NCBI GenBank assembly: GCA_020632515.1
Contig: JACKFK010000005.1
Span: forward strand, 29,327 to 93,326
Reading direction: 5' to 3'
DNA: 64,000 nucleotides
Source: Candidatus Omnitrophota bacterium
GTDB taxonomy: Bacteria; Omnitrophota; Gorgyraeia; Zapsychrales; Zapsychraceae
This document shows, piece by piece, positions 33,928-63,399 of the stretch. Under the pieces are notes generated by a model. The model saw only the letters and a list, made by a program, of their open reading frames with translations. It did not search any database and had not been told where the DNA came from. Position 1 is the stretch's first letter. Each line of letters begins with the position of its first letter. A program made the translations under genes and the position numbers.

Positions 33928-36363
33928 ATGAAAAAATGGAAACTTACTTACAATAAATTTATTCCCGAAGAGGAGAGCTTGAGAGAATCCTTGTGCACGT
34001 TAGGAAATGGTTATTTTGGAACTCGAGGAGCAATTCCCGAATCTTCAGCGAATAAAGTCCACTATCCCGGAACGTATATCGCAGGTGTTTATAATACTTT
34101 AACTACGGAAATTGCCAATCGGTTAATTGCCAATGAAGATTTTGTAAATTGTCCTAATTGGTTGATGTTAACTTATCGTATTGACAACGGTCCGTGGATT
34201 AATAGGCAAAAAGTTAAGATCCTTTCTTGGAAAGTCGAACTTAATATGCGTAAAGGTATTCTTTCTCGAAGAATCCGTTGGCAAGATGATAAAGGAAGAA
34301 GAACTTTGGTAGAGAGTCATTGCCTGGTTAGTATGGCTCATCCGCATTGCGGGGGATTGCGGATAACTATTACACCGGAAAACTATAGCGGAACTATTAC
34401 GGTTCGCAGCGGGATCGACGGGTTAATTATTAATGCAGGTGTTGACCGGTATAAGCAGCTAAGATCCAAGCATTTGGAGCCTTATTTATTAGGAGCGTTT
34501 GGTGAGCAAGGAATATTTTTACAAATGCAGACAAATCAGTCTAATATTCAAATCACGGAAGCGTTACGTAATTTGTTTTATTTAAATAATGAAGCCATTC
34601 ATCCAGAATTGAAGATTATTTCTCATGGAAAACAACGGATTATGCACGAAACTCAAGTTAATGTCAAAAAGGGGGAAAAGTTTTCGATTGAGAAATTAGT
34701 TAGCCTTTACACATCGAGGGATCATGGCGTGGCAGATAATTGTGCCATTGCCCAAGATACGGTAAATAAAATCGAAAATTTCGAAATATTATTTAAAGCT
34801 CATCAAGCCCGATGGAAAGCTTTATGGAAGAGATATGATGTTGAAGTCGAGGGGGATTCTTTTGTTCAATTAGCTTTACGTTTGCATATATTTCATTTGC
34901 TTCAGTCGGCATCTACGTATAACGATGATATTGACGCTGGAATGCCAGTTAGAGGGCTTCATGGCGAGGCTTACCGAGGGCATATTTTTTGGGACGAATT
35001 ATATGTCTTTCCTTTTTATAATTTACATTCGCCCGAGATAACGCGAGCTTTGTTAATGTATCGCTATCGACGGCTAGGTGCCGCTAAAGAAAATGCGAAG
35101 CAACAAGGATTTAAAGGTGCGATGTATCCATGGCAGACAGCCTCAACGGGAGAAGAAGTTACACAAATAATCCATCTTAACCCTTTGTCCGGCGTTTGGG
35201 GGCCGGATTATAGTTCTTTGCAGAGGCATGTTTCAATAGCCATTGCGTATAATGTTTGGAATTATCATTACACGACGGGAGATCGAGATTTTTTAGATCG
35301 TTGCGGGGCAGAAATGATTTTAGAAATTGCTCATTTTTGGTCAAGCTCGGCGACGTTTAATAAAAAAAGTGGGAAATTTGAAATTGAAGGTGTTATGGGG
35401 CCGGATGAATTTCATGAAAAATATCCTGGGGCGAATAAAGGTGGTTTGAAAAATAACGCCTACACAAATATCATGGTGGTATGGATCTTAGAAAAAGCTT
35501 TATATATCATTGATAAAATATTAACAGAAGAAGAACGGAATGCTCTTTTATTGAAGGTCGAGGTTTCACAGGAAGAGGTTGCTCGCTGGCGAGAAATGAT
35601 TTTGAAAATGGCCATTCCAATGGACAAGCAAGGGTTGATTCATCAGTTTGAAGGATATATGGATTTAGAAGAGTTGGACTGGGAGGAGTATCGAAATAAA
35701 TATGATAATATTCATCGAATCGATCGTATTTTAAAAGCGGAAGGGTTATCCCCGGACAGTTATAAGGTATCTAAACAAGCCGATGTGTTGATGTTGTTTT
35801 ATGTTCTTAATATACACGAATTAAAAGATATTTTTAAACGATTGGGGTATCCTTTTTCTAAGGAAATCATGCGAAAGAATTTTCGTTATTATTTCGATAG
35901 AACGTCACACGGATCAACTTTAAGTATGGTTGTACATGCTTACGTGGCGGATTTATTGGATATAAAAGAAAATTCATATGAATATTTTATTGAATCATTG
36001 AAAAGCGACATTTATGATTCTCAAGGAGGAACAACTCAAGAAGGAATTCATGCAGGCGTAATGGGGGGGACGATTGATTTATTTTTGCGCAATTACGGGG
36101 GGTTGAATATATTAGAAGATCGTATCTGCCTGGATCCTAAATTGCCGAAGCATTGGAAAAAAATAAAATTTAGTGTCCGTTATAAAAATATTTGGTTTTA
36201 TGTTGTAGTTTTTAAAGATGCTGTAACGATTACAGCGGAACCATTAAAAGAAATATCTCTTCTTCCAACAACAAAAATTCCTATTGAGGTTAGAAAAGAG
36301 ACCTATCAGCTTCTTCCAGGAAAACCGCACACAATTTCTACTAGAGATTTGTTCCAGAAGTAA
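33928..36363 (+). CDS. Glycoside hydrolase family 65 phosphorylase (trehalose/trehalose-6-P/kojibiose phosphorylase type)
   Basis: 811 aa. N-terminal LGNGYFGTRG and a central catalytic-domain region YRGHIFWDELYVFPFY, both typical of GH65. Substrate cannot be assigned from sequence alone. Confidence 0.85.
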   Translation: MKKWKLTYNKFIPEEESLRESLCTLGNGYFGTRGAIPESSANKVHYPGTYIAGVYNTLTTEIANRLIANEDFVNCPNWLMLTYRIDNGPWINRQKVKILSWKVELNMRKGILSRRIRWQDDKGRRTLVESHCLVSMAHPHCGGLRITITPENYSGTITVRSGIDGLIINAGVDRYKQLRSKHLEPYLLGAFGEQGIFLQMQTNQSNIQITEALRNLFYLNNEAIHPELKIISHGKQRIMHETQVNVKKGEKFSIEKLVSLYTSRDHGVADNCAIAQDTVNKIENFEILFKAHQARWKALWKRYDVEVEGDSFVQLALRLHIFHLLQSASTYNDDIDAGMPVRGLHGEAYRGHIFWDELYVFPFYNLHSPEITRALLMYRYRRLGAAKENAKQQGFKGAMYPWQTASTGEEVTQIIHLNPLSGVWGPDYSSLQRHVSIAIAYNVWNYHYTTGDRDFLDRCGAEMILEIAHFWSSSATFNKKSGKFEIEGVMGPDEFHEKYPGANKGGLKNNAYTNIMVVWILEKALYIIDKILTEEERNALLLKVEVSQEEVARWREMILKMAIPMDKQGLIHQFEGYMDLEELDWEEYRNKYDNIHRIDRILKAEGLSPDSYKVSKQADVLMLFYVLNIHELKDIFKRLGYPFSKEIMRKNFRYYFDRTSHGSTLSMVVHAYVADLLDIKENSYEYFIESLKSDIYDSQGGTTQEGIHAGVMGGTIDLFLRNYGGLNILEDRICLDPKLPKHWKKIKFSVRYKNIWFYVVVFKDAVTITAEPLKEISLLPTTKIPIEVRKETYQLLPGKPHTISTRDLFQK

Positions 36364-44452: not shown

Positions 44453-45685
44453 GTGCCTTTATATCAATATGTTTTAATTAGCACTACAGTAATGTCGGGC
44501 ATTATTTTGCTTTTAATTATTATTCTATCAATTGTTAAAGCAAAGATTGCCAGCGGTGGAGATTGTAAAATATTTATTAATGATGAAAAAGAGCCGATCG
44601 TTGTCCCAAGCGGAGGAACGCTATTAACGTCATTATCAAATCAAAAAATATTTCTTCCTTCGGCTTGCGGAGGTGGTGGAACTTGTGCCATGTGTAAATG
44701 TCAGGTTGTTGAGGGCGGTGGTGATATACTTCCTACAGAAACAGGGTTGATTCCTCGGCGGGAACAAAAAGAACATTACCGATTGTCTTGTCAGGTGAAA
44801 ATTAGGCAGGATATGAAGATACGTATACCGGAAGAGGTTTTCAACATTCAAAAGTTTGATTGTACAGTTAAGTCTAATAATAATGTTGCGACCTTTATTA
44901 AAGAATTAGTAATTCAATTGCCTAAGGATAAAAAGTTAGATTTTCAGGCTGGCGGATATATTCAGATTGATATCCCGCCATATAATGTAAATTTTAAAGA
45001 TTTTCAAATTGAGAAAAAATATCATCCAGATTGGGATAAATATAATCTTTGGGATTTAAAGGCATCTAACGATGAGGAAATTTTCCGCGCGTATTCTATG
45101 GCCTGTCATCCAGCTGAAGAGGGCATTGTTATGTTAAATGTGCGGATCGCGACTCCTCCGCCCCGAGATATGTCCTTACCACCAGGAAAAGCCTCCTCCT
45201 ATATTTTTAATTTAACGCCAGGTGATAAAGTCACCATCAGCGGACCATATGGCGAATTTTTTATTAAGGATACAAAACGTGAGATGATTTACATTGGAGG
45301 TGGCGCGGGGATGGCTCCAATGAGAAGTCATCTGTTTCATTTGTTTCACACCCTTAAGACGAGAGACCGTAAAGTTAGTTTTTGGTATGGAGCGAGGTCG
45401 GTGCGTGAAATGTTTTACACGGAAGATTTTCGGGATATTGAAAAGAATTTTTCAAATTTTCAATATAATGTGGCGTTGTCAGAACCTTTACCCGAGGATA
45501 ATTGGAAGGGGTATACGGGGTTCATTCATAACGTTGTTTATGAGCAGTATTTAAAAAATCATGAAGAGCCCGAAGAGATTGAATATTATTTGTGTGGACC
45601 TCCGATGATGATTGATGCGGTACAAAAAATGCTCGACTCACTGGGCGTACCGCCGGAGATGATCGCCTTTGATTCCTTCGGTTAA
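44453..45685 (+). CDS. nqrF: Na+-NQR subunit F
   Basis: N-terminal TM, a 2Fe-2S ferredoxin domain ([12 protein letters not shown]) and an FAD/NADH-binding reductase domain ([14 protein letters not shown]). Confidence 0.94.
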
Positions 45686-45690
45686 GATAT

Positions 45691-45720
45691 AAAAAGGGAC
45701 ACAAAAATGTGTCCCTTTTT
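45691..45720. terminator. Bidirectional intrinsic terminator between convergent nqrF and nqrM
   Basis: AAAAAGGGACAC - AAAAAT - GTGTCCCTTTTT. A- and T-runs flank a GC-containing stem. Confidence 0.8.
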
Positions 45721-45881
45721 TATTTATCACAATCTAAAGGGTTTTTGCCTTCGGCCCGGCAGGCACAAGAGTGAGGATCTACAGAACAGCCTTTTTTTAA
45801 GGTCTTCTTCGCAAAAATTAGGCCAATGGCCATAGCAGCAAAACAAATTCCAAAAATAAGAAGGGTGATTAAAAAATTCAT
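45720..45881 (-). CDS. nqrM: NqrM-like (DUF539) Na+-NQR maturation protein
   Basis: Taken from the internal Met: MNFLITLLIFGICFAAMAIGLIFAKKTLKKGCSVDPHSCACRAEGKNPLDCDK. It has one TM plus a Cys-rich tail, like NqrM, and is adjacent to nqrF. TTGTGT-17-TATAAT lies just upstream, with TATAAT ending 6 nt before this ATG. The ORF is open to 45947. Confidence 0.6.
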   Translation of the reverse strand: MNFLITLLIFGICFAAMAIGLIFAKKTLKKGCSVDPHSCACRAEGKNPLDCDK

Positions 45882-45996
45882 AGGAACATTATAGAAGAAT
45901 CGTTTTAATAACACAAGAAACTTTGTAAAAGTGTAATATTTGATCATTTCGGATCTGGCGAAGTAACGTTTAGAAAAAGGAATATGGGAGAAGTCA

Positions 45997-47235
45997 ATGC
46001 CTAAAAAAGTAACACAAAGTAAAAAATTAAATGTTAATCAAAGTCAGGAATTAAGCGTTTTACGTAAGGTTGTTGATATAACGAATTCAGAACTTGATCT
46101 ATCTTTTATATTAAGCGAAGTTGTAAAGATTGTTACTGAAATGACAAAAGCGGATTCAGTTTTTATTTATTTATTCGACGAGAAAAAAAGACATTTGGTT
46201 TTAATGGCTTCAAAAACACCGCATAAAAAAGAATTAGGCAGTATTATTTTAAAATCTGGAGAAGGGATTACTGGATGGGTTGCGCGCGAAAACAGACCTG
46301 TTGCTATTTCTGAAAACGCGTATGCGGATAAACGTTTTAAAAATTTCGATGTTCTGCCAGAAGATAGATATGAAGCCTTTTTATCTGTGCCGATTGTTCA
46401 TAAAAATAAGGCTATCGGCGTTATTAATGTTCAGCATAAAAAGTCACATGAACATGCGGAGAGCACGATTAGTTTAATGTCAACGATTGCTAAGCAAATC
46501 AGCGGTGTTATTGAGCACGCGCGTTTATATGAGGAAACAAAGAAAAAAGCTTTACAGTTTGACAGCCTGCAAAAAGTAAGCGAATCAATAACGTCCAAAG
46601 CTTATTTAGATGAAATTTTAAATCTAATAGTTGTGGTTACCGCGGAAATGTTAAATTCAAAAATTTGTTCAATTATGTTATTAGATAAAAAAGGAAAAGA
46701 ATTGGAAATCTGTGCGACGCAAAGTTTAAGCACAGAGTATAAAAAGAAACCAAATTTAAAAGTTGATGAAAGTTTAAGCGGCGAGGTTATCAAAATAAAG
46801 AAGCCGATTGCTATTTACGATGTGCGGGAAGATAAAAAATATCGTTTTAAAGATTTGGCTATTAAAGAGAATTTGACTTCCATGGTTGCGATTCCAATGG
46901 TGCTTAAGGATAAAGCTATTGGTGTTATCAATGTTTATACAAAAGAGCATCATATTTTTTCTGAAGAAGAAATTAATGTTTTGCAAATTGTTGCTAACCA
47001 AGCTGCTGTTGCCGTCGAGAATACGAAGTTAATGGAAGAGGCTATTAAATCGAAAGAGGCTCTAGAGGCGAGGAAAGTTATTGAGCGGGCTAAAGGTATT
47101 TTGATGGAAATGAATAATTTGAATGAAGCGGCAGCGCATCGGCTTATTCATAAAAAAGCTATGGATTCGTGTAAATCGATGAAAGAAATTGCGGAATCCA
47201 TTATATTGATGGATGAATTTCAAAAAGGAAAATAA
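45997..47235 (+). CDS. GAF-GAF-ANTAR RNA-binding antiterminator-type regulator
   Basis: 412 aa. Two GAF-like units, each ending in IGVINV (..AIGVINVQHK.., ..AIGVINVYTK..). C-terminal ANTAR domain: LEARKVIERAKGILMEMNNLNEAAAHRLIHKKAMDSCKSMKEIAESII. Confidence 0.85.
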   Translation: MPKKVTQSKKLNVNQSQELSVLRKVVDITNSELDLSFILSEVVKIVTEMTKADSVFIYLFDEKKRHLVLMASKTPHKKELGSIILKSGEGITGWVARENRPVAISENAYADKRFKNFDVLPEDRYEAFLSVPIVHKNKAIGVINVQHKKSHEHAESTISLMSTIAKQISGVIEHARLYEETKKKALQFDSLQKVSESITSKAYLDEILNLIVVVTAEMLNSKICSIMLLDKKGKELEICATQSLSTEYKKKPNLKVDESLSGEVIKIKKPIAIYDVREDKKYRFKDLAIKENLTSMVAIPMVLKDKAIGVINVYTKEHHIFSEEEINVLQIVANQAAVAVENTKLMEEAIKSKEALEARKVIERAKGILMEMNNLNEAAAHRLIHKKAMDSCKSMKEIAESIILMDEFQKGK

Positions 47236-47250
47236 TTTTTATCCCCCCCC

Positions 47251-47279
47251 TTGACAAAATAAACAAGGGGTTGTATACT
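47251..47279 (+). promoter_or_regulatory. Sigma70-type promoter for the amtB-glnK leader
   Basis: TTGACA (47251-47256), 17-nt spacer, TATACT (47274-47279). Confidence 0.6.
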
Positions 47280-47286
47280 TCGAGCA

Positions 47287-47331
47287 TTAAGACAAAGATG
47301 TCTTAAATTGATTTGCAGGACAAAGAAGTCC
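47287..47331 (+). promoter_or_regulatory. Tandem hexaloop hairpins (ANTAR-target type), unit 1
   Basis: P1 is TTAAGAC-AAAGAT-GTCTTAA (47287-47306). P2 is GGAC-AAAGAA-GTCC (47318-47331). Both loops have 6 nt with A at position 1 and G at position 4. The P2 3' arm is part of the 5' arm of terminator T1. Confidence 0.7.
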
Positions 47332-47367
47332 GGATCCAATAGTGAAATTGGCCGGGCTTATTTTTTT
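47326..47367 (+). terminator. Leader terminator T1
   Basis: Base stem AAGTCCGG/CCGGGCTT (one G-U), 2-nt bulge, tip CCAAT-AGTGAA-ATTGG, then ATTTTTTT. Confidence 0.75.
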
Positions 47368-47383
47368 GAGACAATGATGTCTC
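47368..47383 (+). promoter_or_regulatory. Hexaloop hairpin (ANTAR-target type), unit 2
   Basis: GAGAC-AATGAT-GTCTC. The loop has A at position 1 and G at position 4. The 3' arm overlaps the 5' arm of T2. Confidence 0.6.
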
Positions 47384-47415
47384 CTTTTAAAGGTTTATTT
47401 GAAAGGAGATTTTTT
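47380..47415 (+). terminator. Leader terminator T2
   Basis: TCTCCTTT / AAAGGAGA (8 bp, 14-nt loop) followed by TTTTTTATTT. Confidence 0.7.
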
Positions 47416-47452
47416 ATTTATATCTATTTGGCCAAGGAGGTTAAATAGATTA

Positions 47453-47468
47453 AGGACACAGAGGTCCT
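47453..47468 (+). promoter_or_regulatory. Hexaloop hairpin (ANTAR-target type), unit 3
   Basis: AGGAC-ACAGAG-GTCCT. The loop has A at position 1 and G at position 4. The 3' arm overlaps the 5' arm of T3. An upstream hairpin ATCTATTT/AAATAGAT (47422-47450) presents AAGGAG in its loop. Confidence 0.65.
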
Positions 47469-47506
47469 CTTATTCAACCAAAGCTGGTTGAGAGAGGGCC
47501 TTTTTT
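47462..47506 (+). terminator. Leader terminator T3
   Basis: Base stem AGGTCCTCT/AGAGGGCCT (one G-U), 2-nt bulge, tip TTCAACC-AAAGCT-GGTTGAG, then TTTTTT. Same architecture as T1. Confidence 0.8.
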
Positions 47507-47551
47507 ATTGGCAATAAGATAATTTTCATATTGAAGGAGAAGGAGAGAAAA

Positions 47552-48880
47552 ATGATCAAACGGTTATGGAGAAAAGGAATCATGAAGGTGACAATGGGCT
47601 TGGGAGGAATGCTGTTTTTATCTGGATCAGCGTTCGCTCAAGAAGGTGTTAGTCAAGAGATGTTCACGGTTAATAACACTTGGATGTTGGTGGCTACTTT
47701 TTTGGTATTTGTGATGCATTTAGGTTTTGCAACATTAGAATCCGGTTTAACCAGAGCTAAGAATACAGTAAATATTCTTTTTAAAAATGTGGCAATCCTT
47801 TCAATTGGGTTGTTGACTTACGCAGTCGTAGGATTCAATCTAATGTATCCCAGTGAATGGGCTGCTGGATTATGGCTTCCGAAATTAGCTTTTGGTATTG
47901 GACTACCAGCCGATTATATTTCCGGACAATATGCAGATGGAGGGTATACTTACTGGACTGATTTTATTTTTCAGGCTATGTTTGCGGCAACTTGTGCGAC
48001 AATTGTTTCCGGAGCGGTTGCCGAACGGATTAAGCTGCACAGTTTTTTACTTTTCTCGACAATTTATGTAGCCTTTGTTTATCCATTTTTAGGAAGCTGG
48101 AAATGGGGCGGCGGTTGGTTAGATAACATGGGTTTTTATGATTTTGCTGGGTCTACATTAGTTCATTCTGTTGGAGGTTGGGCAGCATTGGCTTGTGTTT
48201 TAATCTTGGGGCCACGTTATGGAAAATATAATGGTTCTGCCAAGGCTATTCCTGGACACAGCATGCCTTTAGCCACTATTGGAGTTTTTCTTTTATGGTT
48301 AGGGTGGTTTGGTTTTAATGGCGGGTCTGTTCTTTCCGCTGATCCAGAATTAGTTTCTTTTGTCTTTGTTACAACTACATTAGCTGCAGCTGCGGGTGTT
48401 ATAGGAGCGATGTTTACTTCAGAATTACTTTTGAAAAAACCGGATTTGTCGATGGTGTTAAACGGGTCTTTGGCTGGTTTGGTTGGGATAACAGCAGGAG
48501 CAGATACTGTTAGTGTACTTTCCTCGATTATAATAGGATTAATCGCAGGGGCTTTGGTTGTGGTCTCGGTAATATTTATCGATTCGAAATTAAAAATAGA
48601 TGATCCTGTTGGGGCCTTATCTGTTCATTTGGTTTGCGGTATTTGGGGAACCCTTGCGGTAGGGATCTTCAGTACAAATCCTGAGCATAGCTTTATGACG
48701 CAATTAATAGGTGTTTTAGCCTATGGAAGCGTTTCTTTTATTGCCGCCTATGGTATCTTTTCAGTTATAAAATCTTTTATGGGCGTACGTGTAACGGAAA
48801 GAGAAGAGATAAGAGGTTTGGATATCGACGAACATGGTATGGAGGCTTATGCAGGATTCCAAATATTTACAACGGAATAG
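47552..48880 (+). CDS. amtB: Ammonium transporter AmtB
   Basis: Signal peptide (..SGSAFAQEG) and Amt family motifs (DFAGSTLVHSVGGWAAL; GWFGFNGG). SD GGAGAAGGAGAG lies before ATG 47552; the ORF is open from TTG 47531. Confidence 0.94.
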   Translation: MIKRLWRKGIMKVTMGLGGMLFLSGSAFAQEGVSQEMFTVNNTWMLVATFLVFVMHLGFATLESGLTRAKNTVNILFKNVAILSIGLLTYAVVGFNLMYPSEWAAGLWLPKLAFGIGLPADYISGQYADGGYTYWTDFIFQAMFAATCATIVSGAVAERIKLHSFLLFSTIYVAFVYPFLGSWKWGGGWLDNMGFYDFAGSTLVHSVGGWAALACVLILGPRYGKYNGSAKAIPGHSMPLATIGVFLLWLGWFGFNGGSVLSADPELVSFVFVTTTLAAAAGVIGAMFTSELLLKKPDLSMVLNGSLAGLVGITAGADTVSVLSSIIIGLIAGALVVVSVIFIDSKLKIDDPVGALSVHLVCGIWGTLAVGIFSTNPEHSFMTQLIGVLAYGSVSFIAAYGIFSVIKSFMGVRVTEREEIRGLDIDEHGMEAYAGFQIFTTE

Positions 48881-48922
48881 AAATTTTTAAAGTAATTTTA
48901 AATTAAATTTAGGAGGATATAC

Positions 48923-49264
48923 ATGAAATTAATAATAGCTATGATAAAGCCGCATCAATTGCCAGCGACAAAAAAAGCGCTTTTTGATGCAGGAATTACT
49001 AAAATGACTGTTACAAACGTATTGGGTTGTGGACAGCAAGGAGGTTATAGTGAAACCTATCGCGGGGTAAAGCAAGAAATCAATTTGTTAAAAAAGATTC
49101 GAATTGAAATCGCGGTCAATGACGCTTTTGAAGAACCTACGATCAAAGCAATTGTAAAGGGAGCAAAGACAGGGCGAATTGGTGATGGGAAAATATTTGT
49201 GCTTGATTTGCCGAGATGTATTCGTATCCGCACAGAGGAGGAAGGATCAGAAGCTATTGGGTAG
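48923..49264 (+). CDS. glnK: Nitrogen regulatory protein P-II (GlnK/GlnB)
   Basis: 113 aa. [13 protein letters not shown]..., a T-loop with YRG, and the C-terminal GDGKIFV..L...IRIRT.E.G. Directly downstream of amtB. Confidence 0.93.
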
Positions 49265-49342
49265 GCTTTGAAGAAGGGTATAACAAGGTTATTAAATGTG
49301 TAACTTATGACAGTGTAATGACTTTGGGGTTAAGAAAAAAAC

Positions 49343-49371
49343 TTGACAAAAACAAATCTAAATTGTATATT
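49343..49371 (+). promoter_or_regulatory. Sigma70-type promoter for the type III GS leader
   Basis: TTGACA (49343-49348), 17-nt spacer, TATATT (49366-49371). Confidence 0.55.
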
Positions 49372-49455
49372 TATGAATCTTCTTTAATATATTTATTTTA
49401 AAGAAGGGCTGAATTAAAAAATAAGAAAGCACTATAATGTGTGACTCAAAATATT

Positions 49456-49471
49456 AGGGCAACGAAGTCCT
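49456..49471 (+). promoter_or_regulatory. Hexaloop hairpin (ANTAR-target type) in the glnN leader
   Basis: AGGGC-AACGAA-GTCCT. The loop has A at position 1 and G at position 4. The 3' arm is the start of the terminator 5' arm. Confidence 0.65.
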
Positions 49472-49511
49472 TCTTAAAAGTTAGACAATTTTTAAGAAGG
49501 ACTTTTCTTTT
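49466..49511 (+). terminator. glnN leader terminator
   Basis: 14-bp stem AGTCCTTCTTAAAA / TTTTAAGAAGGACT, 10-nt loop, followed by TTTCTTTTC. Lies 47 nt upstream of the glnN ATG. Confidence 0.8.
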
Positions 49512-49557
49512 CATATCTTTGTGAAGAAATATTATCAAATTTAATAGGAGGGGAAAG

Positions 49558-51705
49558 ATGGCTTCAAGATCTAGATTAAAAGAAATAGTTAATAAAGGAG
49601 AGTTAGACATGGCGGAATTAACACAGATCAGGACCGTTCCAGAATATTTTGGCGAGAATGTTTTTAATTTAAAAACTATGCGCAATTATCTTTCTGCGAA
49701 GGCCTATAAATCATTAAGTGAAACTATTAAGAATAACGGAAAATTAGATCCTACCATTGCTGATGAGGTTGCGGATGCGATGAAAACCTGGGCTGTTTCA
49801 AAAGGGGCGACACATTATACTCATTGGTTTCAGCCGTTAACAGGAACAACGGCAGAAAAACACGATTCCTTTATTCAGCCCGACGGAGAAGGTGGTGTTT
49901 TATTGACATTTTCCGGTGAAGAATTAATCCAAGGAGAACCAGATGCGTCGAGTTTTCCGTCAGGGGGGTTGCGGCCAACTTTTGAAGCTCGAGGGTATAC
50001 TGGATGGGATCCAACAAGTCCTGCTTTTATTAAAGAAGGACCTCAAGGAGCTACTTTGTGTATTCCTACTTATTTCGTCGGATGGAAAGGAGAAGCGTTA
50101 GATAAGAAAACTCCTTTGCTTCGTTCGATGAAAGCTTTATCTAAGCAAGTTGGACGTTTAGCTGATTTGTTAGGCATTAAAGCAAAGCAAAACGCCTATG
50201 CAACATTAGGTGGGGAGCAGGAATATTTTCTAATTGATAGAGATTTTTATTATCAGCGGATTGATCTTGTTCAAACAGGAAGAACTTTATTTGGAAAAGA
50301 ACCAGCAAAACATCAACAAATGGCAGACCATTATTTTGGCGCCATTAAATCACGTGTTATCGCTTTTATGGAAGATTTGGATCGTGAAATGTGGAAATTA
50401 GGGGCTCCGATCAAAACACGACACAATGAAGTTTCTCCAGGGCAGTTTGAAATAGCTCCAATATTTGAAAATCAAAATTTAGGAGTCGATCATAATATGT
50501 TGTGCATGGAAGTTATGCAAAAAGTCGCGGAAAAACATGGTCTGGCCTGTTTACTTCATGAGAAACCGTTTAAAGGTGTCAATGGATCGGGAAAACATAA
50601 TAATTGGTCTGTGACGGGGCCTGATGGAAAAAATTGGTTATCCCCAGGTGAAAATCCTCATGAAAATGAACGTTTTTTGGTTATGGTTGCCGCAATTATT
50701 AAAGCTGTTGATAATTATTCTGATTTGTTAAGAGCAGGTATTGCCTCGGCAGGAAATGATCATCGATTAGGTTCTCATGAAGCTCCACCAGCAATTGTTT
50801 CAATATATTTAGGAGAACAATTAACTGATATTTTTGAACAAATAGAAAAAGGTTCGGCAACAAAAAGTTCGAAACAAGGCGGGACGCTTGAAGTTGGTGT
50901 TGATTCATTACCTCCTTTGCCTCGTCATGCTTCAGATCGAAATAGAACTTCGCCATTTGCTTTTACTGGGTCAAAGTTTGAATTTCGAGCTGTTGGATCA
51001 GCTCATAGTTTAGCAGGTCCAAATATCATTATTAATACGATAGTAGCAGATGCTATTTCAGACATTTGTGAAGAATTAGAGGATGCTAAAAAAGGAAAAA
51101 AAGATATTAATAAAACTGCGCAAAAAATTGTACAGGAAATTATTAAAAAACATAAAAGGATCATATTTAACGGTGATAATTATACCGAAGATTGGGTTAA
51201 AGAAGCAAAGAAGCGTGGATTACCAAATATGAAAACCACGCCGGAAGCCTTAGAGGTAATGAAGGATAAGAGAATTGCCGAGCTTTTTGAAAGGCATAAA
51301 GTTCTTTCGAAGAAAGAATTAGATTCTCGATATGGTGTTTATACGGAAACATATGAAACCATTGTTAGATATGAGGGGGCATTAGCCGCCGATATGGTAA
51401 AGACATTAATTGTTCCAGCAGCATTGGAATACACTGCCAATTTAGCGGAAACAATTAAATCAATAGAAAGTATTAATAAAACAAAAGCAACAGCTGTCAG
51501 AAATATTCTTAAAGATGTTGCTAGTAATATGGAAAAAGCAGCTGATGAAACAACTAAGTTAGAAACAGCATTGAAGGGGGCTTCGACGGATAAAATTCGA
51601 AAAATAATGGCTGATTTACGTGAGGCTGTTGACGCTCTTGAGGGTTTGGTTCCAGCAGAAATTTGGCCATTACCTTCATATGCAGAAATGCTGTTTATTT
51701 CATAA
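49558..51705 (+). CDS. glnN: Glutamine synthetase type III
   Basis: 715 aa, the GSIII size class. N-terminal FGENVFN..MR..L; catalytic region [39 protein letters not shown]. Confidence 0.92.
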
Positions 51706-51751
51706 GCATTGAATTGTTTTAAAAAAATAATATTAGAATGCGCAGTTTGGG

Positions 51752-51786
51752 GGGGTAGGTTTATAACCTGCCCCTTACGTTTTTTA
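51752..51786 (+). terminator. Intrinsic terminator candidate after glnN
   Basis: GGGGTAGGTT - TAT - AACCTGCCCC (one G-U), then TTACGTTTTTT. It ends 5 nt before the next ATG. Confidence 0.55.
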
Positions 51787-51791
51787 GCTTT

Positions 51792-54118: not shown

Positions 54119-54273
54119 TAAAGCTGTAACTATTAGAGATTTATCGGGTTTGAGGTTAAAAAGGCATTTAGTGGTTGCATTATCAAGAAAAATGTGTAAA
54201 ATGGATAAAATTGAATCGTAGCCTATAATTGCTAAAATTTTGTGTAACCTATTAAAATAATATTAAAATAACT

Positions 54274-61902: not shown

Positions 61903-63399
61903 ATGAAAAAAAAATATATTTTAGCAATAGATCAGGGGACAACAGGAACAAGAGCCTTTATTTTCAACAATAAAGGAATAACGGTTGCTAGTGCCTATAA
62001 GGAATTTAAACAATATTATCCTTATCCTGGATGGGTTGAGCATGATGCCCAAGAGATATGGAAATCTTGCAAAGATGTAATTAATGCCTCGATACGAAAA
62101 GCGAATATTTCTTCCACGCAAATCGCAGGCATTGGAATTACGAATCAACGAGAAACTACAGTATTGTGGGATAGAAAAACATCTAAGCCAGTGGCTAGAG
62201 CAATTGTTTGGCAGTGCCGAAGAACGGCTCAAATATGTCAATCATTAAAGAGATATGAAAACATCTTTCGTCGGAAAACCGGGCTTGTTTTGGATCCTTA
62301 TTTTTCCGGAACAAAGATCAAATGGTTGTTGGATCAGTATAAAGGGTTGCGAACAAAGGCGGAGAAAGGAAGTCTCTGTTTTGGGACGATCGATAGTTGG
62401 ATTATTTGGAATCTTACCGGAGGCAAGGCGCATGTTACAGATTATACAAATGCGTCGAGAACATTAATTTTTAATATAAAAACTAAAAGCTGGGATGCAG
62501 AGTTATTGAAAATATTAAAAATACCAAAAAGAATTTTACCGAAGGTTCAGAAATCTGGATCAATTTTTGGGCATACAAATAAAAATGCGCGAAATCGTGA
62601 TTTAAAAATTTTAGATGGTGTCGCGATATCGTCTGTTCTTGGAGATCAACAGGCTGCTTTATATGGTCAAGGATGTCATCAGCCAGGCACGATTAAAAAT
62701 ACTTATGGAACAGGATGTTTTATGGTTCTTAATACAGGACAAAAAAGGGTGCTGTCCAAAAAAGGATTGCTCACGACGCTGGCAAGCGATGAAAAAGGAA
62801 ATCCTGTTTATGCGTTGGAAGGATCTGTTTTTATTGCCGGAGCCGTTGTTCAATGGTTAAGGGATGAATTAGGCGTTATCAAGATTTCGAAGGAAACTGA
62901 ATTGTTGATCAAAGATGTTGCGGATACACAAGGGGTTTATTTTGTTCCGGCGTTTTCTGGGTTGGGAGCTCCTTATTGGGATAGTAAAGCCAGGGGGGTG
63001 ATCAGCGGTTTAACGCGGGGAGCAAATGCAAAACATATTATTCGCGCTTCTTTAGAAGCTATTGCTTATCAAACCAAAGATGTTTTTGATGTTATGAAGA
63101 AAGAATTAAATAAAAAGTTGAATGATTTAAAGGTCGACGGAGGAGCTAGCTCAAATGGTTTTTTAATGCAGTTTCAAGCGGATATTCTAAATTGTAGAAT
63201 AATACGTCCCAAAAATGTTGATACTACAGTATTAGGTGCCGCGTTATTAGCAGGCGTAACAGTTGGTTTATGGGAAGGGAAAAAAGATTTGGACAAGATT
63301 AATAAAACAGAACGTATTTTCTATCCAAAAATGACTACGAAACGACGGACAGAATTATATTCTGGCTGGGTAAAAGCTGTTAATAAAGCCAGAGCCTAA
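61903..63399 (+). CDS. glpK: Glycerol kinase
   Basis: ILAIDQGTTGTRAF, GITNQRETT, and FGGY-family C-terminal motifs. Confidence 0.95.
   Translation: MKKKYILAIDQGTTGTRAFIFNNKGITVASAYKEFKQYYPYPGWVEHDAQEIWKSCKDVINASIRKANISSTQIAGIGITNQRETTVLWDRKTSKPVARAIVWQCRRTAQICQSLKRYENIFRRKTGLVLDPYFSGTKIKWLLDQYKGLRTKAEKGSLCFGTIDSWIIWNLTGGKAHVTDYTNASRTLIFNIKTKSWDAELLKILKIPKRILPKVQKSGSIFGHTNKNARNRDLKILDGVAISSVLGDQQAALYGQGCHQPGTIKNTYGTGCFMVLNTGQKRVLSKKGLLTTLASDEKGNPVYALEGSVFIAGAVVQWLRDELGVIKISKETELLIKDVADTQGVYFVPAFSGLGAPYWDSKARGVISGLTRGANAKHIIRASLEAIAYQTKDVFDVMKKELNKKLNDLKVDGGASSNGFLMQFQADILNCRIIRPKNVDTTVLGAALLAGVTVGLWEGKKDLDKINKTERIFYPKMTTKRRTELYSGWVKAVNKARA

Follow-up and report, generated by a model that had tools for sequence, protein, structure and literature searches.

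How might a bacterium of the uncultured phylum Omnitrophota couple ammonium uptake to its nitrogen status? The question is raised by a 64,000-nucleotide (nt) stretch of Candidatus Omnitrophota DNA (contig JACKFK010000005.1; hereafter the window, to which coordinates refer), in which a gene for a 412-residue protein with two GAF domains and an ANTAR domain (45997–47235, + strand; Pfam GAF_2, GAF and ANTAR) is followed, after a 316-nt gap, by the ammonium transporter gene amtB (47552–48880, + strand; Pfam Ammonium_transp, E 3.5e-115) and the P-II gene glnK (48923–49264, + strand; Pfam P-II, E 6.6e-26). An initial annotation of this DNA proposed that the neighbouring GAF-GAF-ANTAR protein, which has no receiver, acts as an antiterminator at three serial terminators in front of amtB–glnK. 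We found that every computational test available to us agrees with this core reading, and on the evidence of sequence we consider it highly probable that nitrogen assimilation is governed here by ANTAR-type transcription attenuation through the adjacent GAF-GAF-ANTAR protein.

Anatomy of the amtB–glnK leader

Only two sites between 45500 and 50000 agree with the sigma-70-type promoter consensus at 11 of 12 positions. The first, TTGACA-17-TATACT at 47251–47279 on the + strand, begins 16 nt after the end of the regulator gene and precedes a leader of about 270 nt, which runs towards the GGAG ribosome-binding sites before amtB (47536–47545, + strand). Within this leader are three units, a unit being a predicted terminator together with an A1/G4 hexaloop hairpin (A at the first and G at the fourth position of a 6-nt loop) whose 3′ arm extends into the terminator's 5′ arm. 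All elements described below are on the + strand.

Unit 1 has two hairpins. The upstream hairpin P1 (TTAAGAC-AAAGAT-GTCTTAA, 47287–47306, -6.2 kcal/mol) is followed, after an 11-nt linker, by antiterminator hairpin 1, or P2 (GGAC-AAAGAA-GTCC, 47318–47331, -4.0 kcal/mol), whose 3′ arm opens the 5′ arm of terminator T1 (47326–47367; stem 47328–47357, then TTATTTTTTT; -15.2 kcal/mol). T1 consists of a base stem, a 2-nt bulge and a tip hairpin, CCAAT-AGTGAA-ATTGG (47336–47351), the loop of which is again of the A1/G4 kind, and its U-tract is interrupted (UUAUUUUUUU). Antiterminator hairpin 2 (GAGAC-AATGAT-GTCTC, 47368–47383, -5.9 kcal/mol) begins 16 nt past the T1 tip hairpin and overlaps terminator T2, a 13-bp stem whose tip loop, GGUUUA, is not ANTAR-like (47379–47419; stem 47380–47409, then TTTTTTATTT; -14.9 kcal/mol). 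Antiterminator hairpin 3 (AGGAC-ACAGAG-GTCCT, 47453–47468, -5.5 kcal/mol) leads into T3 (47462–47509; stem 47463–47500, then TTTTTTATT; -24.2 kcal/mol), which repeats the T1 build of base stem, 2-nt bulge and tip hairpin (TTCAACC-AAAGCT-GGTTGAG, 47473–47492) with an A1/G4 tip loop. The initial annotation had described this promoter, the three A1/G4 hairpins, the three terminators, the two-hairpin arrangement of unit 1 and the mutual exclusion of hairpin and terminator, and all of these were recovered: the promoter by the consensus scan, the hairpins exactly in place by a hairpin search, the terminators by folding, each followed by a U-tract, and the exclusion in that each terminator 5′ arm begins within the preceding hairpin 3′ arm.

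The leader is far from random. Its predicted fold, a check that the annotation had proposed, has a free energy of -88.4 kcal/mol (z = -6.7), more stable than that of any of 200 shuffled sequences. It holds A1/G4 hexaloop hairpins at 7 per 300 nt, the highest density in the 64 kb, against a + strand background of about 0.7. The long open reading frames (ORFs) of the window lie nearly all on the + strand, and A1/G4 hexaloop hairpins number 155 on that strand versus 49 on the other; because the purine-rich coding strand makes such hairpins three times commoner, strand-matched controls were needed.

A fourth unit in the glnN leader

The second promoter site (TTGACA-17-TATATT, 49343–49371, + strand, 11/12) lies upstream of glnN (49558–51705, + strand; Pfam GSIII_N, E 5.2e-78), which encodes a type III glutamine synthetase. 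Between the two we found a fourth attenuator unit (49428–49511, + strand), absent from the initial annotation. Its antiterminator hairpin, AGGGC-AACGAA-GTCCT at 49456–49471, overlaps a terminator of -21.7 kcal/mol (stem 49467–49502, then TTTTCTTTT), and is preceded by a P1-like hairpin, GCAC-UAUAAU-GUGU, whose loop is without A1/G4. Because the glnN leader also carries a promoter and a unit, the proposed regulon within the window comprises amtB–glnK plus glnN as the second regulated gene.

The shared arm is present in all four window units, and the A1/G4 loop in all four antiterminator hairpins, in P1 and in two terminator tips. The four terminators have predicted energies of -15 to -24 kcal/mol, with 6–7 U within the 9–10 nt downstream, and termination is expected to be the default state, because the small hairpins reach only -4 to -6 kcal/mol.

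Match to published ANTAR targets

The initial annotation had suggested a covariance-model search for ANTAR targets. We used a model, R1, made from the 31 ANTAR targets in Figure S2 of Ramesh et al. 2012 with their published P1/P2 structure; its source sequences are eut and other leaders from Firmicutes and some proteobacteria, with zero from Omnitrophota. The whole window was scanned with filters off (search space 128 kb). The best match is 47289–47331, that is, P1 plus P2 of unit 1 over the full length of the model (27.2 bits, E 1.4e-4), and the second-best is 49428–49470 in the glnN leader (15.8 bits). Other matches, at 63071, 30609 and 52547, lie in coding sequence with broken pairs and were dismissed. 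In its paired hexaloops, A1/G4 signature, arm shared with a terminator and neighbouring ANTAR gene, unit 1 has the hallmarks of the ANTAR attenuation class.

Rfam does not hold an ANTAR-target family, and a permissive Rfam scan of 45000–50000 gave only sub-threshold matches (rli56, PyrR, PyrG leader and assorted small RNAs), with no riboswitch family among them. A PyrR match (RF00515, 30.7 bits against a gathering score of 54) and a PyrG-leader match (sub-threshold; gathering score 65) both fall over T2–T3; the former rests on two terminator stems, and we discarded both as terminator look-alikes. The best Rfam match in the region is to rli56 (RF01483), at 49436–49536 in the glnN leader, with 32.1 bits against a gathering score of 47. 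The rli56 family is filed as a Listeria cis-regulatory small RNA, in which GAGCAACGGGGCUC is followed by a terminator-like stem. Its consensus holds the L. monocytogenes eutV-leader ANTAR element (GAGCAACGGGGCUC) of Ramesh et al. 2012, Fig. S1 (PMC3369931). By this token rli56 appears to be in effect an ANTAR attenuator, and its match here makes the element similar in kind without placing it in the family.

Conservation across Omnitrophota

The regulator is 100% identical to an NCBI protein named Candidatus Omnitrophica, and its relatives at about 70% identity number thousands, in the same phylum. As a sample of relatives we used 80 Omnitrophota loci (ortholog identity 68–78%) from a scan of species-representative genomes; some of these carry the record label "uncultured Planctomycetales". 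On the + strand of the window, nqrC–F (ending at 45685) is followed by the regulator gene, amtB and glnK and, after a further 293-nt gap, by glnN, a class-I amidotransferase gene, the NAD+ synthase gene nadE, gltB and gltD. The order regulator, amtB, glnK, glnN, amidotransferase, nadE, gltB recurs in related loci, and amtB or glnN follows the regulator within 1.3 kb in 40 of the 80.

Across the window and the 80 loci, 89 units lie on the sense strand, as against a single one on the reverse strand. The genes downstream are amt in 49 cases, glnN in 18 and the regulator itself in 3, the others being nirB, glnA-I, amt paralogs and porin-like genes. The hexaloop emerges without being imposed. With the stem of GGRC-N(L)-GTCC as the sole requirement, matches peak at L = 6 (140 against 20–35 at other lengths), and these 6-nt loops have A1 in 74%, G1 in 19%, G4 in 94% and A5 in 69%. 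Coupling to a terminator follows the loop as well: a predicted terminator adjoins 90 of 126 RxxG hexaloops (71%), 0 of 14 other hexaloops and 0 of 63 loops of 3–5 nt. Hairpins with the same stem and longer loops also overlap terminators in the relatives (12 of 30 with 7-nt loops, 6 of 35 with 8-nt loops), and some units seem to use heptaloops or octaloops that fall outside the hexaloop definition.

The promoter is conserved with the units. CTTGACA-N17-TATAnT precedes the first unit in orthologous leaders, and of 134 promoter sites of that type across the loci, 60 are followed by a unit within 150 nt. Tandem arrangement is common: at least two terminators are present in 32 of 36 amtB leaders adjoining the regulator, and strict units number 0 in 5 of these leaders, 1 in 15, 2 in 11 and 3 in 5. 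Three units were also recognised, by eye or by regular expression, in the loci L058, L004, L051, L053 and L065. Within Omnitrophota it is usual to have two or three units in tandem, and this genome is no oddity in that respect; the novelty that the initial annotation implied for the triple array was overstated.

Unit for unit, the leader of L058 parallels that of the window, with sequences of its own. In unit 2, GAGAC/GUCUC and UCUCC...GGAGA of the window correspond to GGAC/GUCC and GUCCCC...GGGGA of L058; in unit 3, AGGAC/GUCCU and ...AGAGGGCC of the window correspond to GGAAGAC/GUCUUUC and ...GGAAAGGCC of L058. Where the shared arm changes between the two, the hairpin 5′ arm and the terminator 3′ arm change with it, in sets that were selected for pairing. 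Upstream P1 stems, from sets likewise selected for pairing, average 7.4 bp against a background of 4.7 bp (p = 2e-8), and they differ in sequence among species (17 different inner 4-mers in 21 cases).

Units in the relatives also stand before genes for nirB-type nitrite reductase, type I glutamine synthetase and porin-like proteins (motif SKYIWRGF), as judged by a look at N-terminal sequences, for example in L020 (9912), L034 (9558), L064 (3032), L006 (9338), L053 (7421), L063 (1589) and L065 (7816). The regulator gene itself is preceded by a unit in, for example, L063 (82) and L066 (632). This suggests a wider regulon, plus autoregulation in some species.

The regulator and its putative signal

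The initial annotation had called the protein GAF-GAF-ANTAR with no receiver, and Pfam bears this out: we found two GAF domains and an ANTAR domain that scores 69.5 bits against the PF03861 cut-off of 27.3, with no receiver domain. By Pfam and the structure model, GAF1 spans about residues 14–176, GAF2 about 204–341 and ANTAR 353–403. The ANTAR domain aligns with those of EutV (PDB 6wsh), Rv1626 (1s8n) and NasR (4akk). Arg-359, Lys-366 and Glu-377, corresponding to EutV Arg-142, Lys-149 and Glu-160, are invariant among 16 orthologs, and position 381 (EutV Tyr-164) is His in 9 of them and Tyr in 7. The AlphaFold monomer has two GAF folds linked by long helices, with a continuous helix (residues 323–373) that runs into the ANTAR three-helix bundle (residues 353–403). 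Its mean predicted local distance difference test score is 77.5; the relative domain arrangement is unreliable, since the predicted template modelling (TM) score is 0.46. The tandem-GAF part resembles the regulatory modules of PDE5, PDE2 and CyaB2 by Foldseek.

What might this protein sense? GAF1 matches the PtsP GAF structures over full-length alignments (3ci6, E 5e-25, TM-score 0.87–0.90, 32% identity; 3trc, E 5e-19; Foldseek identities for the pair 28–32%). It also matches NCBIfam PRK11061 over positions 2–162 (E 2.6e-45) and the N-terminal GAF domain of the NifA model TIGR01817 over positions 2–168 (E 2.9e-26). By these comparisons the nearest kin of GAF1 appear to be the GAF domains by which EI-Ntr (PtsP) and NifA sense nitrogen. 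The GAF domain of NifA binds 2-oxoglutarate. That of EI-Ntr binds glutamine (PMC4848567), and the E. coli EI-Ntr GAF domain responds reciprocally to glutamine and 2-oxoglutarate, as cited there from Lee et al. 2013. Because GAF1 is closest to these two domains, glutamine or 2-oxoglutarate is plausible as the signal, and we tentatively propose that GAF1 reads one or both, an assignment in which we have less than even confidence.

In five relatives, a shorter second GAF ORF lies directly 3′ of the regulator, in the place of amtB (L008 7240–7731, L014 1650–2141, L022 7324–7752, L062 7320–7826 and L011 7533–7958). It is 27–34% identical to both GAF domains of the regulator.

Proposed mechanism

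The computations establish the anatomy of the leaders, their non-randomness, the match to the ANTAR RNA consensus, conservation and synteny across Omnitrophota, and the retention of RNA-contact residues. From these we infer that the regulator binds the hairpins and that read-through rises under nitrogen limitation. In the mechanism that we propose, a strong, constitutive sigma-70 promoter would fire into a leader of about 270 nt with three serial intrinsic terminators. Just before each terminator the nascent RNA would first fold a 4–5-bp hairpin of the consensus (A)GGRC-ANNGAN-GUCC(U). The terminators would win by default, and transcription would halt at T1, T2 or T3. Under nitrogen limitation the GAF-GAF-ANTAR protein, presumably as a dimer, would bind the hexaloops with their G4 flipped out and keep the GGRC/GUCC hairpins closed; a closed hairpin would block the terminator base stem next to the U-tract, and RNA polymerase would read on into amtB–glnK. 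All three checkpoints would have to be passed to reach these genes, and the fourth unit would gate glnN likewise. Serial terminators would multiply read-through probabilities and, by analogy with other tandem attenuators, may lower leakiness and sharpen the response.

Several observations count against this interpretation. Model R1 gives unit 2 (47368–47407) and unit 3 (47453–47489) only 11.7 and 11.8 bits (E about 0.6), with the antiterminator hairpin read as P1 and the terminator tip as P2 in both; by this model only unit 1 is a clear canonical dual hexaloop. In the relatives, 62% of units have neither kind of second hexaloop, upstream or at the terminator tip. ViennaRNA closes an extra A-U pair in two of the loops (AAAGAU and AAUGAU), making them tetraloops in the free RNA. 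The initial annotation had proposed looking for conservation and covariation of the hairpin and terminator stems in relatives; conservation is present, and no signal of covariation was seen beyond the nearly invariant 4-bp GGRC/GTCC core in 133 core-anchored hairpins. There the stem extends beyond the core only by a fifth A-U pair (56%), which does not exceed shuffle controls, and we describe the core hairpin as sequence-conserved, not demonstrably covarying. On the protein side, the residue expected to stack on G4 is His in this regulator, not Tyr, Phe or Trp. The GAF1 matches are at the domain level only and fall far under the whole-protein PtsP and NifA model cut-offs, as is expected because the regulator has a different architecture.

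Position of the second hexaloop

Two placements of a second hexaloop are enriched in the units. A canonical upstream hexaloop hairpin within 2–20 nt is found in 22% of units against 3.8% of controls, and an A1/G4 hexaloop at the terminator's own tip in 19% against 3.2%. The A1/G4 tips of T1 and T3, on which the initial annotation had remarked, belong to this second, real trend. Tip loops read off minimum free energy (MFE) structures were found in only 6 of 89 units, because the MFE fold frequently pairs up or displaces the loop; searching for the hairpins themselves gave 16/89 units versus 22/1125, a real enrichment that concerns a minority of units. The best R1 match in 860 kb of related loci has this nested layout (L056, 7387–7424, 32 bits): AGGGC-AAAGAC-GUCC takes the P1 of the model, and the terminator tip, AAGC-AAAGGU-GCUU, takes its P2.

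In 17 units an upstream hairpin has no room, because the unit starts 12–17 nt after the -10 box. In tandem arrays the hexaloop tip of one terminator is often only 8–17 nt upstream of the hairpin that follows, for example in L024, L033, L058 and, in the window, the T1 tip and unit 2. The MFE fold of the window leader also contains a 12-bp hairpin, AUCUAUUUGGCC-AAGGA-GGUUAAAUAGAU (47422–47450, + strand), absent from the initial annotation, with a 5-nt loop and no U-tract. It sits between T2 and hairpin 3, 2 nt before the latter, and might be a non-canonical upstream partner of unit 3; no counterpart was seen in the L058 leader.

Walshe et al. 2022 proposed a single hexaloop as the minimal ANTAR site, with a dimer binding loops successively (PMC8934654), and the single, nested and tandem layouts seem to fit that proposal. 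A bolder and rather doubtful extension is that in Omnitrophota one polypeptide, whose EI-Ntr/NifA-type GAF domain would sense glutamine or 2-oxoglutarate directly and drive its ANTAR domain, replaces the usual multi-protein nitrogen cascade, and that its RNA targets follow a variant ANTAR grammar. The sole universal element of such a grammar may be the hexaloop hairpin (A)GGRC-ANNGAN-GUCC(U) over the terminator base, to which a second hexaloop may be added either upstream (canonical) or as the apical loop of the terminator (nested), and in tandem arrays one terminator (n) may lend its tip to the next unit (n+1) as an upstream hairpin. If true, the variant grammar would be natural support for the single-hexaloop, successive-binding model derived from the EutV structure.

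Alternative explanations

Of the alternatives, the one that survives best, though we consider it unlikely, accepts the ANTAR-type attenuator and has the regulator controlled by contact with a protein such as GlnK instead of by a small molecule bound to GAF. Nearly all loci have glnK inside the regulated operon, and a feedback loop would result. There are precedents as well: partner proteins control pseudo-receiver ANTAR proteins (PMC7496416; also PMC3795266), AmiC controlling AmiR and NasS controlling NasT, and P-II acts on some NifA GAF domains, which GAF1 also resembles. However, the nearest relative of GAF1 is EI-Ntr's GAF domain, a direct glutamine binder, the tandem-GAF fold matches the ligand-binding tandem GAF domains of PDE2, PDE5 and CyaB2, and the sequence data hold no specific pointer to a P-II interface.

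It is very unlikely that the hairpins are targets of a different ANTAR protein from another part of the genome, a response regulator for instance, with the GAF-GAF-ANTAR protein acting on other RNAs. In 40 of the 80 species-level loci the GAF-GAF-ANTAR gene immediately precedes an attenuated leader of amtB or glnN, its own leader bears a unit in three loci, and the window contains neither a second ANTAR gene nor a further strong R1 match; this stands against the facts that the analysis covered 64 kb of the genome, so that further ANTAR genes may lie outside it, and that the ANTAR regulators of nitrogen genes in Firmicutes and Geobacter are response regulators. Scarcely credible is the suggestion that the terminators are constitutive (the regulator's own, or insulators) with incidental hairpins, or that the leader is read by a riboswitch or a PyrR-like protein: although no terminator lies between the regulator stop (47235) and the promoter, so that read-through from the regulator would end at T1–T3, and sub-threshold PyrR and PyrG-leader matches cover T2–T3, all three terminators stand between a conserved promoter and the amtB ribosome-binding site, a terminator has no need of the loop signature R1/G4/A5 (positions 1, 4 and 5) in which G4 is nonetheless 94% conserved, terminator coupling depends on the loop (90/126 versus 0/14), the PyrR and PyrG scores are far below gathering, and no riboswitch family matches. 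Attenuation by the adjacent GAF-GAF-ANTAR protein remains the reading that we prefer.

Other features of the locus

Downstream of the proposed regulon, glnN is followed by a plain terminator at 51750–51776. No hexaloop–terminator unit was found in the leaders of the amidotransferase gene (51706–51791) or gltB (54119–54273), and the nitrogen-related pairs amidotransferase–nadE and gltB–gltD are probably outside attenuation control in this genome.

Upstream of the regulator, a strong stem-loop flanked by A-runs and T-runs (45691–45720) separates nqrF on the + strand from a convergent ORF on the - strand, and could terminate transcription in both directions. The convergent ORF (45720–45947, - strand) encodes 75 residues with one hydrophobic helix and a Cys-rich tail (GCSVDPHSCACRAEGKNPLDCDK). 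It has no Pfam match, either as the full ORF or in a 53-residue version, and may resemble NqrM-type maturation factors.

Discussion

ANTAR antitermination of nitrogen genes is already known, and finding it here is not surprising in principle. The closest parallel for the RNA is the EutV/EutW system of E. faecalis and Listeria eut genes (PMC3369931, PMC8934654), which shares the two short A1/G4 hexaloop hairpins with a short linker, the terminator-proximal hairpin whose 3′ arm is common to an intrinsic terminator, the long helix, here a predicted one, before the three-helix ANTAR domain and the Arg, Lys and Glu residues that contact G4; the 27.2 bits of unit 1 were obtained with a model that includes eut targets. 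The sensor there is a phosphorylated receiver with a kinase, whereas here two GAF domains lie in one polypeptide, the targets are nitrogen-assimilation genes and the residue at the G4-stacking position is His or Tyr. Each of the four eut leaders has a single terminator, in contrast to three serial units in one leader here, and many Omnitrophota units have a single canonical hexaloop or use the terminator tip as the second.

For the target genes, the closest precedents are GnfK/GnfR of Geobacter sulfurreducens and the regulons listed by Ramesh et al. GnfK/GnfR controls the nifH, glnK and amtB leaders by ANTAR antitermination, glnK–amtB included (Ueki and Lovley 2010, PMC2995071), and a conserved CAGGCAANGGCGCC overlaps the Geobacter terminators in a manner comparable to AGGGCANNGANGUCC here. 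The Geobacter regulator is a response regulator under a kinase and sigma-54 cascade, unlike the one-component GAF protein, plain sigma-70 promoters and tandem terminators of the present locus. For Desulfotomaculum, Desulfitobacterium, Carboxydothermus and others, Table S2 of Ramesh et al. 2012 (PMC3369931) places predicted elements before the genes for ammonium transporter, P-II, glutamine synthetase and glutamate synthase, with the regulator gene adjoining glnA, and records two elements in one amt/P-II leader of D. acetoxidans (34402–34448 and 34596–34642). The regulators there are annotated as ANTAR response regulators; Omnitrophota and GAF-ANTAR proteins are not covered, and triple arrays and the nested layout are not described. 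That paper also states that none of the PAS- or GAF-linked ANTAR proteins had then been characterised.

For the protein, NasR of Klebsiella oxytoca (NIT-ANTAR) and PAL (PAS-LOV-ANTAR) are likewise one-component proteins with a sensor fused to ANTAR through a helix, and were the only ones characterised as of 2020 (PMC7496416). NasR also antiterminates a nitrogen-assimilation leader. Their sensors are NIT or LOV domains, whereas here GAF-GAF, with a GAF1 of EI-Ntr/NifA type, presumably reads general nitrogen status and not nitrate or light. EI-Ntr and NifA in turn share full-length domain similarity with GAF1, but the present protein has a second GAF domain inserted and its output is an RNA-binding ANTAR domain in place of a phosphotransferase or an AAA+ activator. 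We found no characterised GAF-ANTAR protein and no ANTAR work in Omnitrophota in the literature, which is weak evidence, as most subscription journals were outside the search. The novelty claimed in the initial annotation is narrowed accordingly: ANTAR control of amt, P-II and glnA leaders and a leader with two hits had been published. What appears to set this system apart is the GAF-GAF sensor with its EI-Ntr/NifA-type GAF1, its use across the phylum behind sigma-70 promoters, tandem arrays as a routine feature, and the single and nested hexaloop layouts.

GAF-ANTAR is among the commonest ANTAR architectures, and this locus pairs one such protein with unambiguous, conserved RNA targets, an obvious regulon (amtB–glnK and glnN, with nirB and glnA in relatives) and a suggested ligand in glutamine or 2-oxoglutarate. 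Because the targets, the regulon and the candidate ligand are all at hand, GAF-ANTAR function becomes directly testable in vitro. The roughly 90 natural variants of the attenuator, with single, dual, nested and tandem hexaloops, bear on whether one hexaloop suffices. For the Omnitrophota, a phylum both abundant and uncultured, the locus would offer a first view of how nitrogen genes are regulated.

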